A stretch of DNA of 64,000 bases, taken from positions 10,215 to 74,214 of IMG/VR virus record IMGVR_UViG_3300050343_000135. One strand, written 5' to 3'. Numbering within the stretch: the first letter of the stretch is position 1; each line of letters begins with the position of its first letter. Shown piece after piece: positions 42,335 through 57,364 of this stretch. The DNA comes from a virus. Both the position numbers and the translations under genes were made by a program. Under the pieces are notes generated by a model. It was not told the DNA's origin, made no database searches, and saw nothing but the letters and a program-made list of their open reading frames with translations.

Positions 42335-42363
42335 ATTATACCACAGCGCCCGGTAAATGTCAA
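42335..42363 (-). promoter_or_regulatory. Leftward sigma70 promoter firing into non-coding DNA
   Basis: TTGACA-17-TATAAT with extended -10; back-to-back with a rightward promoter at 42400-42427. Confidence 0.7.
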
Positions 42364-42458
42364 GAGAAACGCAGAAATTAATTTTCTTTCACAAATCCCT
42401 TGACATTTCCAATTGGCGCTGTATAATAGTATACATAATAAAGACAAAGGAGAACATT

Positions 42459-42620
42459 ATGAAAAACGAAAAAACAGAAAAAGCAAAAAGACCAAACAAA
42501 AAATACTTGCTAAAAGAAATTAGCGAACTATCTGGCAAAAGAATCGCTGAGTTAGACTCACTAGGCAGAAGCAACATTGAAACAATCGTCTGGATTCGCG
42601 ACATGGTCAAAGGAGCGTAA
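42459..42620 (+). CDS. 53-aa protein resembling the C-terminal half of A2
   Basis: Own promoter (42400-42427) and the RBS AAGGAGAACATTATG, identical to that of the A2-like gene at 43437. Confidence 0.7.
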   Translation: MKNEKTEKAKRPNKKYLLKEISELSGKRIAELDSLGRSNIETIVWIRDMVKGA

Positions 42621-42681
42621 GCAACTCTATAACTCACTGCTAGACGCAACCTGCTATTGGCACGCAGGTCGCATCGCGCCG

Positions 42682-42710
42682 ATTTTACCACACCTAAACT
42701 CGCATGTCAA
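42682..42710 (-). promoter_or_regulatory. Leftward promoter, antisense to the 53-aa ORF
   Basis: TTGACA-17-TAAAAT with extended -10. Confidence 0.65.
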
Positions 42711-42981
42711 TACTTATGCGAAATTATTTTTGCCTAAAATTTCCCGGGCTAGTCTTCCCTATACCTAAAGCATTTCCCCAAGAGTGAGTACTCACTATCA
42801 TCGCACGTCAGCAAAAAGGGATTCGCACCAATCGGGCGTTGCTTTATCCAGGGCGGCGCCGTAAGTGCGAAAACTAAGTACAAAAGTGATACTCCTGCGC
42901 CAAATTAAGTGCAAAATCTAAGTACTAGGTCTACTTGTGCGAGTTAGCGGCCGTCGCGAGACTAGTATAAGTCTTATTTAT

Positions 42982-43009
42982 ATTTTATCAGACTTTGGAA
43001 GCTTGTCAA
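42982..43009 (-). promoter_or_regulatory. Leftward promoter into the repeat module
   Basis: TTGACA-16-TAAAAT with extended -10. Confidence 0.55.
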
Positions 43010-43154
43010 GACTTATGCGAAGGTTTGCACCGATTTTGCGAGAAAGATTGTGCCAGTTTCGCGTCCGGCCCCCGAGAGTTCGCTAGCGTTAATTTATGAG
43101 GAATTTCTTTCGCAAATCTATTGACAATCTTATCAGGCTTCTATATAATATATG

Positions 43155-43360
43155 TATCTTTTGAGGGAAATGAGAAAAACCGAACACAGAGGCTAACTAT
43201 TAACAGTTAGAGAGAGTATAGGTGAGTCGCTTCAGGGGGGTGTCCAAGCATGCTAGGGGATATTAGAAATGCAAAAACGAACAAGAGCTTGGCCCGATTC
43301 ATTTCCACCAAAAGACCTATACTAAGGTATGGTTGCGAAAGGAGAACACGCAAAACATAA
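43155..43360 (+). ncRNA. Candidate structured ncRNA 1 (~200 nt)
   Basis: Promoter TTGACA-17-TATAAT (43121-43149), no credible ORF, ends pair (TCTTTTG/CAAAAGA, GGAAATGA/TCATTTCC), and a 9-bp long-range pairing 43215-23 with 43315-23. Confidence 0.55.
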
Positions 43361-43436
43361 AAAACTCCTTGACAAAACCTTATCCGCAGTATATAATAGT
43401 ATTATAAAAACAAACAAAAAGAATAAGGAGAACATT

Positions 43437-43763
43437 ATGGCATCAGCTAAAAATTACACAGAAGAAATGGTAGCTTCAATGACAGAAGCATACAAAGCCA
43501 ATCCTACAAGAGAAACAGTAGATGGCTTAGCAAGAGAATTTGGCAAGACTACAAGAAGTATCATTGCTAAACTTTCAAGAGAAGGCGTATATGTTGCTCA
43601 ACCAAGAACAACTAAATCTGGTGAAGCAATAGTAGCTAAATCTGAGTTGGTTTCTGAAGTTGCTACTATTCTAGGTGTGCAGGTTGAGGACATAGCATCT
43701 CTAGAAAAAGCAACAAAAGTCCACCTCAAAGAACTGGTGACAAGACTATCCCAAGTAGTCTAG
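43437..43763 (+). CDS. T5 A2-like DNA-binding protein
   Basis: NYTEEMV...LAREFGKTTRSIIAKLSREGVY...KSELV...IASLEKA; promoter 43369-43397; true start 43437 by RBS. Confidence 0.7.
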   Translation: MASAKNYTEEMVASMTEAYKANPTRETVDGLAREFGKTTRSIIAKLSREGVYVAQPRTTKSGEAIVAKSELVSEVATILGVQVEDIASLEKATKVHLKELVTRLSQVV

Positions 43764-43832
43764 TTGCGAACTCTGAGAACCTCGTGAAAAATAACACTTG
43801 ACACGAGGTTACCGCCAGAGTATAATATATTT

Positions 43833-44105
43833 ATAAAATTAAGAAACAGTAGAGAAGTGATAAAAGTAGGCTGACCCCCTCATTGTCACTTGGTTAAAGT
43901 GAACCTACTCTAGCTACTAAACATACCCTATCAAGTAGCAGATAGTATTTAACGGGAAAGTGGTGGGATTAAATACTGTTTTTTAGCTAGATAACTCTAG
44001 CGTGGTAAGTGTCTACGGAAGCACGCACAAAAGTGAAGTAGCAAGTTCGACTCTTGCACCACCTAGTAAAAGTTAGTACCAATCTAACATCTAGCTAAAA
44101 ACCAG
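43833..44105 (+). ncRNA. Candidate ncRNA 2 containing an anticodon-less tRNA-like domain
   Basis: Promoter 43798-43826; consecutive hairpins; D-arm, canonical T-arm GCAAG-TTCGACT-CTTGC and acceptor-like stem at 43997-44066, inside a 12-bp closing helix. Confidence 0.65.
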
Positions 44106-44167
44106 TTAAGTAGTAAATAAGTTAAAAATTTACTTGACACAAGGTTAAAAACGTAGTATAATATATA

Positions 44168-45163
44168 TTACAAAAAGGGGAAAAGTAGTTGGAAACAGGA
44201 AAAAATAAATGATTGAGCTTCGGCCAATAAATAATCCTCCAACAACTTGACCGAGTGAGGCGTCACATAAAACACTGCCGGATGCTCTTTAGACATAGAT
44301 GAGATTCACGTTAAATGTAAAAATGTCCGCTTTTGATAGTCGTTATGAGACATACCTTCCGCAGCAAGGAGAGAGTCATAACCGCATGAACTGATGCGTA
44401 AATATTTGAGTGGATACTTCCAATAAGTCCCCTGAGTACATAGTACGATTGCGAAGGACTCCAAAGTAGGGTGAGTAGCGACTAACACAACGGCAATAAG
44501 CAAAGCAGCAACGAAGCAAGAACAGTTCGGCACTTTATCGAAAGTATAAAATCGATTTGTTTTACTGCATTAATGGGCGTTACGACCTTCGGGTTTACTA
44601 AATGCAGAGGTAATTGTAAGCACAGGATATAGCCAAAATATCGGTGTAGAGTGAGGAAACCACGCTGTTCCTATCCCACGCCTCAACCGTTTCGGTAGCA
44701 GGAGTGTAGGGCAAGGACGAGAAGAAAACCAGTCTACTGCGACACGGGCGGACTAGATATTTATATCATAGCAACCAGTCAATAGTAGCAAACTCGGGCA
44801 AGGGAAAGGATGATGTTTCCTAGCCGCAGACTGCGAGAGCGAGGTGTCTTCGGGACGGGGGCAGTAGGCAACTAATTAAGAAGTGCAGACTTGGAACACT
44901 ATAAAAGCTAAGCAGCAAGAAGAACGGCAGTCGCTCTGTCAACTACTGAATAGTAGATATCTTAGTCAATAGCATTTGGACTTAAAACAGTGCATAGTAG
45001 ATAAGTGATGTGAAATAAGCAGTGCACCTTCGATTGAAGTTTGTAATATCCATCACCTCTAGCTACGCAGTGGACAGGTTCGTGAGTAATTCCAACACGA
45101 CCACTTTAAAATAAACTTACGTTCGGAGTTTAAATAGGCAGTTGAGATACTGCCTATTTTTTT
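44168..45163 (+). ncRNA. Candidate giant structured ncRNA (~1 kb)
   Basis: Consensus promoter 44134-44162, strong terminator 45132-45163, no plus-strand ORF of 60 aa or more, many nested helices and cUUCGg/GNRA loops. Confidence 0.75.
45132..45163 (+). terminator. Intrinsic terminator
   Basis: AAATAGGCAGT/ACTGCCTATTT stem plus T-run. Confidence 0.85.
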
Positions 45164-45265
45164 GTTTCGTAGAACTATATCTCAAAATTTTAAGGTCTTA
45201 AAAAATAGTTCTTGACAGACAACTTATTTCTCTGTATAATATATGTATATAAAAAGGAGACAAAG

Positions 45266-45610
45266 ATGGATTTATGGACAACAATCAAACACTTAGAAAA
45301 GGAACACAATTGCATAATATATGGCATACTTGAACCACAAGGTGTAGCAGAAGATTTATCTAGCTGGAGTAGTTTTGATGCTGAGGAGCGAACAGAAGAT
45401 TTCATAATGGACTCTTACGACATTCCAACGCAGTTAATGCTTGAAGCATTTGAGAACGCATATAACAATGTAAGTTCCGAGTACGACAACTACAACACTA
45501 TGCTAGAAGTAGTAGGCGATTACATAGTCGCAAAGTTAAAAGCAAAGCAGTGTGTATGTGGCGCAGTAGAATGCCCAGACGAGTACGCACACACAACGAG
45601 TGGGGTGTAA
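45266..45610 (+). CDS. Acidic hypothetical early protein with C-terminal CxC-x4-C
   Basis: Promoter 45212-45240; AAGGAG RBS; ATG at 45266. Confidence 0.65.
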   Translation: MDLWTTIKHLEKEHNCIIYGILEPQGVAEDLSSWSSFDAEERTEDFIMDSYDIPTQLMLEAFENAYNNVSSEYDNYNTMLEVVGDYIVAKLKAKQCVCGAVECPDEYAHTTSGV

Positions 45611-45899
45611 GATGGCAGACAAATTTACTAAGGGAGTCATGGGCGACCACAGTGCAAAAGTGATGCCTTTCCCCACCATTGACAGAGTCTCTTTTTATAG
45701 GAGCATATGGATAGAAGTATGACAGCAATAGCAGAGTTAAATGTGCAGTTGCAACAAGTACAAGACATGCTATTCAATGAAGTAGTAGAGTTCGAGACAT
45801 GCGTTGTTGAGTTACAAAACGAAATACAACGCTTGGAACGACTACTAAAAAATGAACAAACAATAAACAAGATAGGTAAAGACACATAGGAGGTGCAAC

Positions 45900-46121
45900 A
45901 TGCCAGTAAAATTTAAACCAAGTGCAAAGAAATACGTTAGAGGCGTACCGGCAAGTAAATTGCCAATGGAACACTTCTACATGCACACAATGAAAAAAGA
46001 AGAGCTATTTGAGTACATAAACGACAAAGGCCAAAACATGAAACCTAAAGTAAGACAGAAGTGCGTAAACGAACTTCAGCGTAGAGGTATCAAAATAGAA
46101 TGGGTGGAGGTGCAGTCATGA
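45900..46121 (+). CDS. Hypothetical early protein
   Basis: GGAGG RBS; 73 aa. Confidence 0.65.
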   Translation: MPVKFKPSAKKYVRGVPASKLPMEHFYMHTMKKEELFEYINDKGQNMKPKVRQKCVNELQRRGIKIEWVEVQS

Positions 46122-46261
46122 GATGGAGTGGTAAAGCGAAACATAAATCGCACAAAAAGAAAACTGCACAAGGTGATTCACATGGCAGAGTTAGCTTAAA
46201 TATGAACAAAAACAAGAAGCGTAGCTTCAAGAAATACAGGGGCAAGGCAGATGATAAATGA
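46118..46261 (+). CDS. Small basic protein ending KKYRG(QGR)
   Basis: MRWSGKAKHKSHKKKTAQGDS...KRSFKKYRG; coupled to both neighbours. Confidence 0.6.
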   Translation: MRWSGKAKHKSHKKKTAQGDSHGRVSLNMNKNKKRSFKKYRGKADDK

Positions 46262-46650
46262 TTATGCGAAATTTGTAGACAAATGTACCTCCGCTGAGAG
46301 TAGAGAAACGAGTGCTTTTCAGCAGAGAATAACAGCACTAAGCGTGATGCATCCTGATGTAGATTGGAGTAGATTAATGACTTCAGCTATAGGAATGTTA
46401 GCAGAAAGTGGAGAATTTACCGAGATTATGAAAAAAATATTTTTTCAAGGTAAAGAAATGAGTGAAGGCAACAGATATCATATGAAGCGTGAGCTAGGTG
46501 ATGTACTGTGGTACTGGATTCAAGGTTGTATTGCATCTAGGTTATACGCCTGAAGAAGTAATGAAAGAAAACATAGCAAAGCTAGAGAAGAGATATCCGA
46601 ATGGCTTTGAACAGATTCGTAGTGAAGTGCGAGAAGAAGGAGATATCTAG
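46251..46650 (+). CDS. mazG: MazG-like nucleoside triphosphate pyrophosphohydrolase (one indel)
   Basis: GMLAESGEFTEIMKK...KRELGDVLWY, then ENIAKLEKRYPNGF in a shifted frame. Confidence 0.85.
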
Positions 46651-47500: not shown

Positions 47501-47745
47501 TGACACAGTATATAAACGAAGTAGAAAAACAAAGACTGTATCTAGCTGCTGAAGACTGGGGAAACAAAGTATCGCAGATATACTCAACAAAAGGTGGAGC
47601 AGGAGATTTAGGCTTTGGTATGGGAATGTTTGTTTACTATAACAATGGAGCAGTACATAAGCTAGAAGGAAAGAAGATAAGTATATGTCAAGTTCCGAAC
47701 AGTATAGAACAAGTCATAGACGACTATGAAAGGAAGGATGTATGA
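47500..47745 (+). CDS. Hypothetical protein
   Basis: 81 aa, coupled to its neighbours. Confidence 0.6.
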   Translation: MTQYINEVEKQRLYLAAEDWGNKVSQIYSTKGGAGDLGFGMGMFVYYNNGAVHKLEGKKISICQVPNSIEQVIDDYERKDV

Positions 47746-48044
47746 ACTACAGTAAGGAAATAACAGCGGATATAGTAAAAAGATATAGGGACGCTCCAAA
47801 CCGCCAAACAGTTGCGATTCTCGCAAAAGAACTTGGCAAGAGTGAGAAGTCCGTTATAGGAAAACTAAGCAAGGAAGGAGTATATAAACGAAGTGTTTAT
47901 GTAACGAAAGCTGGAGAAAAGCCAGTAACAAAAGCACAACTAGTGCAAGAATTAGAGGAGAAGTTAGATGCGAACTTGGAAGGGCTAGAGAAAGCTCCGA
48001 AAGAGACTCTACGCTCCTTAGTGGAGGCAATATGCGAAGAATAG
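47742..48044 (+). CDS. Second A2-like paralogue
   Basis: NYSKEIT...LAKELGKSEKSVIGKLSKEGVY...TKAGEKPVTKAQLV...GLEKA aligns along its length with 43437-43763. Confidence 0.75.
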   Translation: MNYSKEITADIVKRYRDAPNRQTVAILAKELGKSEKSVIGKLSKEGVYKRSVYVTKAGEKPVTKAQLVQELEEKLDANLEGLEKAPKETLRSLVEAICEE

Positions 48045-48572: not shown

Positions 48573-48800
48573 TTATCTCCGAGAAAATTTATTTCTCTTA
48601 CGATAGTCAGATGAGATTTGATTGAGAGATTTAAGATGTCTCTTCCTCTGCTCGTTTTTCTTACGTTTGCGTTTCACTGTTGGTTTCTCATAGAATTCGA
48701 GTTCGCGACAGCGTTCTTTGATTTGAGCGGCCTCACATTTCTTACGAAAAATACGAATTGCCTTTTCTGTTGGCATGTTTTTACAGTATATACTAGGCAT
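48573..48800 (-). CDS. rpsU: Phage-encoded ribosomal protein bS21
   Basis: EKAIRIFRKKCE...RELEFYEKPTVKRKRKK. Confidence 0.88.
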   Translation of the reverse strand: MPSIYCKNMPTEKAIRIFRKKCEAAQIKERCRELEFYEKPTVKRKRKKNEQRKRHLKSLNQISSDYRKRNKFSRR

Positions 48801-56996: not shown

Positions 56997-57364
56997 TGGC
57001 TGGAGGAGTATACAATCAAACGTACTTCGATAATCGTCCTCTTGAAAAAGAACGGGACGGAGTTTTATACGGCGTAATTTTAGTTAATACAAAAACATGG
57101 AACCGAGAGTGTATCAAGGTAGGTATAGCTAGTGGGAAAGACTGGAGACACGTAATCAAACGAAGTCGAGGATTTAAATACTACGACTTAAGAATACAAC
57201 GAACTTACCACGATACTATATATAACTGCTGGAAGTTTGAACAGGAACTTCATGCTAAGTATAAGCATGACAGCTATGCTCCAAAAATTAAGTTTGGAGG
57301 ACATACAGAGTGTTTCAAAATTTCTTCCTTAATTCTTCAGGACTTCCCCAAAAATAGATCTTGA
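56996..57364 (+). CDS. GIY-YIG-like (T5orf172/MUG113-type) nuclease
   Basis: GVLY...IKVGI...EQELH...FGGHTECF. Confidence 0.65.
   Translation: MAGGVYNQTYFDNRPLEKERDGVLYGVILVNTKTWNRECIKVGIASGKDWRHVIKRSRGFKYYDLRIQRTYHDTIYNCWKFEQELHAKYKHDSYAPKIKFGGHTECFKISSLILQDFPKNRS

Follow-up and report, generated by a model that had tools for sequence, protein, structure and literature searches.

The DNA analysed here, called the window below, is a stretch of 64,000 nucleotides and forms part of a 74-kb IMG/VR virus contig. The contig carries siphovirus tail genes as well as genes for a DnaB-type helicase, a small terminase and an NAD-dependent ligase. Its major tail protein shares about 33% identity with the counterparts in T5-like phages of Vibrio and Aeromonas (Demerecviridae). 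Judged by these genes, the source of the window is a distant, uncultured T5-like siphovirus. On its plus strand, the interval 44134–45166 is very probably the gene for an uncatalogued class of large (≈ 0.9–1.25 kb), folded non-coding RNA of uncultured marine T5-like siphoviruses. An earlier sequence-only reading of the same DNA had proposed a giant structured RNA of about 1 kb at this place and had thought of phage-associated RNAs; the comparative data given below bear out the RNA, and the genes of the contig bear out its phage association. The features of the locus are collected in Table 1.

Table 1. Features of the RNA gene and its surroundings, in window positions; paired strands are separated by a slash.
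Feature	Position	Strand	Remarks
Perfect promoter, divergent	42363	-	
Perfect promoters in cluster	42400, 43121, 43369, 43798, 44134, 45212	+	
A2-family paralogue 1	43437-43763	+	phrog_1725
Sigma-70 promoter	44134-44162	+	-35 TTGACA 44134-39; 17-nt spacer; -10 TATAAT 44157-62; 12/12 match
Non-coding transcript, ~1 kb	44169-45166	+	start predicted ~7 nt after the -10 box
P1	44183-93/44238-48	+	encloses conserved A-rich strands; GC-UUCG-GC cap 44217-24
Hairpin GUGA-GGCG-UCAC	44255-44266	+	3 of 4 pairs change on both sides
Candidate H-type pseudoknot	44279-44327	+	44279-87/44301-10 crossed by 44292-96/44323-27
Long hairpin	44342-51/44373-82	+	inner stem 44353-59/44364-71; loop CCGCAGCA
Hairpin	44383-87/44394-98	+	loop 44391-93 pairs with 44528-30 (crossing)
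Long-range helices	44404-06/44524-26, 44417-20/44502-05	+	close a sub-domain with a window-specific insertion, ~44431-44490
Hairpin	44532-36/44541-45	+	pair 44535:44542 shows all four Watson-Crick types
Stem	44565-71/44601-07	+	cap ACC-UUCG-GGU 44585-94
Helix	44620-28/44639-46	+	
Invariant hairpin	44648-66	+	GAGUGAGGAAACCACGC; GAAA tetraloop; its 17-mer retrieved the family
Variable middle domain	44667-44993	+	varies in length and content
Middle-domain helices	44802-07/44817-22, 44826-34/44861-69, 44926-30/44936-40, hairpin 44943-56	+	
3' domain, stacked helices	44997-45003/45060-66, 45005-13/45049-56, 45015-20/45039-44	+	
3' domain, hairpin	45077-84/45096-102	+	
Intrinsic terminator	45132-45166	+	11-bp stem 45132-45159, then U-run
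p73	45900-46121	+	73 aa, Lys/Arg-rich, MPxKFKPS...KCxNELxRRG; immediately downstream of the RNA in 102 loci
MazG-like pyrophosphatase	46251-46553	+	likely early cluster; conserved in 86 loci
A2-family paralogue 2	47742-48044	+	phrog_1725
Ribosomal protein bS21, phage-encoded	48573-48800	-	phrog_21469, E=2.8e-13

The gene order around the RNA is conserved and co-oriented in 144 loci, and the cluster likely consists of early genes. An A2-family DNA-binding protein gene lies upstream, with a promoter-driven unit of ≈ 300 nt between it and the RNA. The RNA is followed by the gene for a basic protein of 73 residues (p73), MazG, further small genes and a second A2-family gene, and then, on the opposite strand, by a phage bS21 gene. 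The latter is found 3.4 kb downstream of the RNA in the window and is kept in 28 related loci, again on the opposite strand and ≈ 4.6 kb from the RNA. The proteins encoded on either side of the cluster are distantly related paralogues within the DNA-binding family of T5 A2 (phrog_1725, E=5e-6 and 9e-7; T5 A2 itself matches at 4e-52). A direct BLASTP comparison of the upstream protein with T5 A2 was not significant (E=0.086), and the assignment therefore rests on the PHROG profile only. Since the promoter at 43369–43397 lies inside a longer ORF call for this gene, translation probably begins at the ATG at 43437. For p73, neither Pfam nor PHROG offered a family, and its AlphaFold model (pLDDT 81) gave no informative fold match with Foldseek against the PDB (best E=3.4). 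It is a candidate partner of the RNA for which there are no binding data; a protein partner has not been identified. No canonical tRNA genes were detected with ARAGORN in the window or in the 28 related loci.

Seven perfect (12/12) TTGACA-N16/17-TATAAT promoters occur within 3 kb (42335–45240), a cluster resembling the strong early promoters of T5. One of them (43798–43826) belongs to the ≈ 300-nt unit just upstream of the RNA (43798–44133), which is likewise free of ORFs. This unit contains a tRNA-like T-arm and acceptor strand, GCAAG-TTCGACT-CTTGC-ACCACC, at about 44041–44064; the arm is non-canonical and was recognised by neither ARAGORN nor Rfam. The unit showed weak conservation in relatives with nhmmer.

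The perfect promoter and strong terminator which the sequence-only reading had placed at the two ends of the RNA are both present, as TTGACA-17-TATAAT and as an 11-bp stem followed by a T-run. All homologues examined have a perfect promoter of the same type in this position, and each examined copy is bracketed by its own perfect promoter and that of the next gene. Six pairs of the terminator stem have changed on both sides in an alignment of 22 sequences. The unit is, as had been noticed before, richer in G+C than its flanks (0.41–0.46 versus 0.35–0.38), and TTCGG is 12-fold enriched in it. The idea of a TAG/AGTAG sponge was dropped, the enrichment being mild and local only.

There is no sign of a protein-coding function. 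The longest stop-to-stop frame on the plus strand of the unit has 48 codons' worth of residues (48 aa), and no long frame is opened when TGA, TAG or TAA is read as sense, in agreement with the earlier statement that a plus-strand ORF is lacking. The 46 copies compared share no ORF except one of 14 codons starting with TTG (≈ 44558–44602), which recurs in 35 of them. It was rejected as a gene: it lacks a Shine-Dalgarno sequence, and what varies in it is the base-pair compensation of the P8 hairpin. Variability per codon position (0.188, 0.193, 0.203) reveals no three-base periodicity. Codon-like conservation, which would have spoken against a non-coding RNA, is thus absent, there being neither periodicity nor a shared ORF beyond this by-product of a hairpin.

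A blastn search (word size 11) with the 1.1-kb region returned no match among 50,697 cultured phage records. Relatives were retrieved via the upstream protein and then via an invariant 17-mer of the RNA, AGNGTGAGGAAACCACGC. By nhmmer and pattern scans, at least about 150 uncultured phage and metagenome contigs carry a homologous locus. They include at least 84 full-length copies (at least 46 after removal of near-duplicates) with lengths of 898–1273 nt; among the first dozen homologues compared, pairwise identity ranged from ≈ 45% to 86%. Scanning 185,579 prokaryote genomes for the 17-mer gave 42 pattern matches, which we regard as chance because none was homologous by nhmmer. More distant versions, again preceded by the gene of that upstream protein, come within reach of R1, a covariance model for the central domain. 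This model had no match in T5 or Vibrio phage VspSw_1, and a marginal one in Aeromonas phage AhSzq-1 (MG676224.1, 84126–84250, minus strand; 14.9 bits, E=0.056) is probably due to chance. One complete relative, a 105,272-bp contig with direct terminal repeats (L102/G001), has the RNA domain at 57159–57289; here unrelated sequence has taken the place of the 3' middle domain, and model positions ≈ 700–950 are missing.

For structure analysis, 22 full-length sequences were aligned (alignment A2) and a consensus structure was obtained with RNAalifold. Standard pairs make up 93.4% of the 4,470 cells, and 75 of the 214 predicted pairs have changed on both sides and yet remain paired. Shuffled alignments gave 47.7±3.2 such pairs (none of 500 reached 75), and controls in which the partners were slid by 1–3 columns gave 18–27. 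The covariation score was 0.224, versus 0.103 for shuffled and ≈ 0.04 for slid pairs. The large excess of G-U over A-C cells (396 versus 61) indicates an RNA read from the plus strand. Folding energies of the single sequence were unremarkable relative to shuffled ones (z = −0.27 for the plus and −0.24 for the minus strand), so that thermodynamics alone shows nothing. The comparative evidence for an RNA fold, drawn from the alignment, is strong, and the covariation among homologues that the sequence-only reading had called for as support of a new class is thereby provided. A mutual-information scan showed at least three candidate crossing, pseudoknot-type pairings to covary. Three RNAalifold pairings are probably wrong: columns 47–57/1586–1596, involving the 5' A-rich tract, have their 3' arm beyond the terminator; 44324–31/45069–76 competes with the well supported 44292–96/44323–27; and columns 643–649/1212–1218 compete with the hairpin 44943–56.

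Because the consensus was derived from the same alignment, the helices proposed earlier from the single sequence were tested independently. Five of them are carried by compensatory changes, namely 44183–93/44238–48 with its GC-TTCG-GC element, 44342–48/44376–82 (7/7 pairs compensatory, 46 of 46 paired), 44565–71/44601–07 with its ACC-TTCG-GGT cap, the hairpin 44943–56, and 45005–10/45051–56. The pairing 45070–84/45096–104 survives in part, as the consensus hairpin listed in Table 1, and its remainder is not family consensus. The helix 44732–40/44861–69, supposed to close a multibranch domain, had to be given up as a family-wide element, the consensus partner of 44861–69 being 44826–34.

The near-invariant elements include the 5' A-rich strands, the loop CCGCAGCA of the hairpin 44342–44382, conserved in nearly all copies, and the GAAA-capped hairpin 44648–66. 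In the P1 region the pair 44212:44228 covaries. Of the two helices forming the candidate pseudoknot, 44279–87/44301–10 is mostly invariant and 44292–96/44323–27 has four compensatory pairs. The loop base 44537 covaries with 44552 (A-U, C-G, G-C, G-U), as expected of a tertiary or pseudoknot pair. Among the 46 diverged copies, 17 have a module of 22 nt, AGUAGUAGGGCAAGUCCCACGC, without a single letter changed, yet its site differs: it lies in the middle domain or, as in several relatives, in the terminator loop. The form present in the window is split and circularly permuted (CCCACGC at 44675–81 and GUAGGGCAAG at 44706–15), the two strands being closed on the other side. The module behaves like a transplantable binding or docking module, for which binding data are lacking. 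Examples of the module (AGTAGTAGGGCAAGTCCCACGC) are found in the relatives L007 (2916–2937), L090 and L010.

The RNA appears to be abundant in marine RNA libraries, as far as unstranded contigs can tell. Part of it (≈ 30% of the sampled words) is present in each of twenty RNA runs of marine or seawater origin, drawn from 15 studies. Four marine runs from four studies were compared over 42800–46600; summed contig depth was 100–2500 over 44197–44958 versus 0–37 on the flanking genes. In one of these (X4), which contains the same strain, contigs of the RNA with 0–2 differences have a depth of 235–248, a 615-nt contig on the A2-family gene without differences has a depth of 11, and a contig on the downstream gene has a depth of 3.8. 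An oligo-dT library yielded an 834-nt contig of a ≈ 96%-identical relative spanning 44177–44962 (X6 record 20). Its 5' end carries the letters AGTGGTATCAACGCAGAGTACG, presumably a template-switching adaptor, and the location of these at ≈ 44177 is a weak hint that the 5' end of the RNA lies within ≈ 10 nt of the predicted start. The depth data come from assembled contigs and not from reads, meaning that related strains are summed and that strand and true ends are not given; contig depth is a poor measure of expression. In addition, the contrast is inflated: at 80% identity the conserved RNA draws in more relatives than its faster-evolving flanks do. Parts of the flanks without contig cover in the four runs were not used as evidence.

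The Rfam 15 covariance models gave no match at gathering thresholds on the 64-kb window, none at E≤10 on 43700–45500 and none at E≤5 on 14 homologues. The models without a match include those for GOLLD (RF01998), ROOL (RF03087), OLE (RF01071), HEARO, raiA and 6S, and also tmRNA, RNase P, group I and II introns and rRNA, so that those which the sequence-only reading had singled out for a search all failed to match. The only weak matches were terminator-like look-alikes of small RNAs (RyhB, TarB, BTnc231), far below threshold. By these searches the RNA belongs to no catalogued family. That reading had left the choice between a divergent GOLLD-like RNA and a new class. The missing Rfam match, together with the strong covariation and the lack of codon-like conservation, supports the new class; a divergent GOLLD, whose model does not match, is not supported. 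Literature searches found no description of the RNA. A 2023 survey of IMG/VR describes only short 'DNAVirus_X' candidates of 29–151 nt each (PMC10690425). A part of the RNA may already be among these. We use 'new' for the class of RNA, as a loose category of large, ornate phage RNAs with unknown function already exists.

The function of the RNA is not shown by any of the evidence presented here, and what follows on its mechanism is inferred. The host sigma-70 RNA polymerase would make the RNA early and in large amounts, and the product would act in trans as a compact RNA body. We favour, tentatively and without considering it probable, a role as scaffold or decoy, in which the RNA would bind and retain a protein of host or phage origin, over an RNA-only assembly or a ribozyme. 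The binding surfaces might then be the unpaired, near-invariant A-rich strands at the 5' side, the CCGCAGCA loop, the GAAA hairpin and the 22-nt module. Near-invariant unpaired elements, in combination with an invariant module that can move, point to specific contacts.

An RNA-only homo-oligomer, a cage or ring like those of GOLLD, ROOL and OLE, is possible but unlikely. Copies of the RNA would join by loop-loop and A-minor contacts, and the assembly would perhaps enclose or display cargo. Size, phage origin and an ornate fold are common to the present RNA and these three, all of which proved to be homo-oligomers (PMC12286853). GNRA and UUCG caps, conserved A-rich single strands and the abundance in libraries fit such an assembly, and contacts between molecules would be well served by a conserved module that can occupy one or the other of two peripheral sites. 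The RNA has, however, no homology to GOLLD, ROOL or OLE, and, unlike many GOLLD and ROOL RNAs, it has no canonical tRNA genes nearby, neither in the window nor in the 28 related loci. A conserved self-complementary loop was not found either; the ATCGAT at 44551–56 is not palindromic in most homologues.

We consider it quite improbable that the RNA works as a large ribozyme or supplies the RNA subunit of a catalytic RNP, with the invariant unpaired nucleotides as the active site. Its multi-domain fold, its pseudoknots and its GAAA tetraloop hairpin do recall group I and II introns and RNase P, and invariant nucleotides are grouped in blocks within loops and junctions. Against this stand the failure of all ribozyme models to match, the fixed place in the gene order without gene insertion, flanking exons or intron-encoded protein, and the absence of any hint of a substrate. 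Combining these two possibilities, it is doubtful that the RNA is an RNA-only machine, be it a self-assembling cage or ring or a ribozyme, which founds a new class and serves early host takeover by widespread marine T5-like phages. Should this be true, it would be among the more abundant viral transcripts in surface seawater.

Two further explanations do without a functional folded RNA product. A cis element of the DNA that is merely transcribed, such as a region like the iss of T5, a replication origin or a packaging site, might be suspected in view of the adjoining A2-family gene and of the untranslated region with repeats and DnaA boxes which T5-like phages keep near A1/A2 (bioRxiv 10.1101/866236). 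It is highly improbable, as pairs are kept by compensatory changes with G-U tolerated six times more than A-C, and as the element has its own promoter and terminator and lies deep in RNA libraries; moreover, no repeat arrays are apparent in 44168–45163 (by eye only), blastn finds no similarity to cultured phages and the covariance model finds nothing in T5. That the RNA is a long leader, codes for one or several tiny proteins or is a gene using a non-standard genetic code is hardly credible, for the many short frames and the TTG frame of 35 copies are all that speaks for it, while the latter merely reflects hairpin compensation without Shine-Dalgarno sequence or periodicity, stop recoding opens nothing, and a strong terminator and a fresh promoter separate the RNA from the next gene.

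To our knowledge, very few natural RNAs of such size and complexity exist outside ribosomes, introns and RNase P. GOLLD, ROOL and OLE each showed an unexpected architecture, and the RNA of the window is longer than any of them. With 46 non-redundant full-length sequences and rich covariation, there is enough material for a reliable secondary structure and for the design of cryo-EM constructs. The defined phage lineage, the conserved neighbourhood and the apparent high expression in the sea make the purpose of giant phage RNAs testable in a new setting, the early genes of a lytic T5-like phage, in contrast to tRNA islands of prophages. The data also flag an unannotated and seemingly abundant component of marine metatranscriptomes.

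GOLLD and ROOL often adjoin tRNA genes or islands in phages and prophages, and GOLLD rises at lysis. The RNA of the window differs in that its place is among likely early genes, next to a gene of the A2 family, and not in a tRNA island, and, compared with GOLLD, in being driven by a consensus promoter like those of T5 early genes. It is also longer, and the GOLLD and ROOL models match neither the window nor the 14 homologues. Both ROOL (≈ 600 nt) and GOLLD (>800 nt) are ornate, covariation-supported phage or prophage RNAs whose function is unknown and which act without a known protein; GOLLD was first found in marine metagenomes (PMC12286853). Large size, an ornate covarying fold and phage origin are thus shared with both, and the marine metagenomic discovery with GOLLD.

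OLE, in turn, works with proteins and has been proposed to sequester ribosomal protein bS21 (PMC12286853). The likeness consists in a large structured RNA and in the bS21 gene which the phage of the window carries downstream of it. This link is mere co-occurrence within a generally conserved gene order, and OLE itself is encoded in the chromosomes of extremophilic Firmicutes, has dedicated Oap proteins, and its model does not match.

A counterpart in T5-like phages themselves is the large, well conserved untranslated region near A1/A2 in the first-step-transfer DNA, which is full of repeats and DnaA boxes (bioRxiv 10.1101/866236). Like this injection-stop (iss) region, which measures 1.66 kb in T5, the element of the window is kilobase-sized, free of ORFs, close to a gene of the A2 family and better conserved than many neighbouring genes. 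Published descriptions treat the iss as a DNA signal containing repeats, palindromes and DnaA boxes, whereas the window holds an RNA gene running from promoter to terminator, with RNA-type covariation and no sequence in common with T5. The phi29 pRNA and 6S RNA, finally, are 5–6 times smaller and of simple architecture, their models do not match, and there is no evidence for a portal or an RNA polymerase as partner of the RNA described here. They are nevertheless precedents for the mechanism favoured above, in that each is a highly expressed, structured RNA that acts in trans by binding a protein complex.
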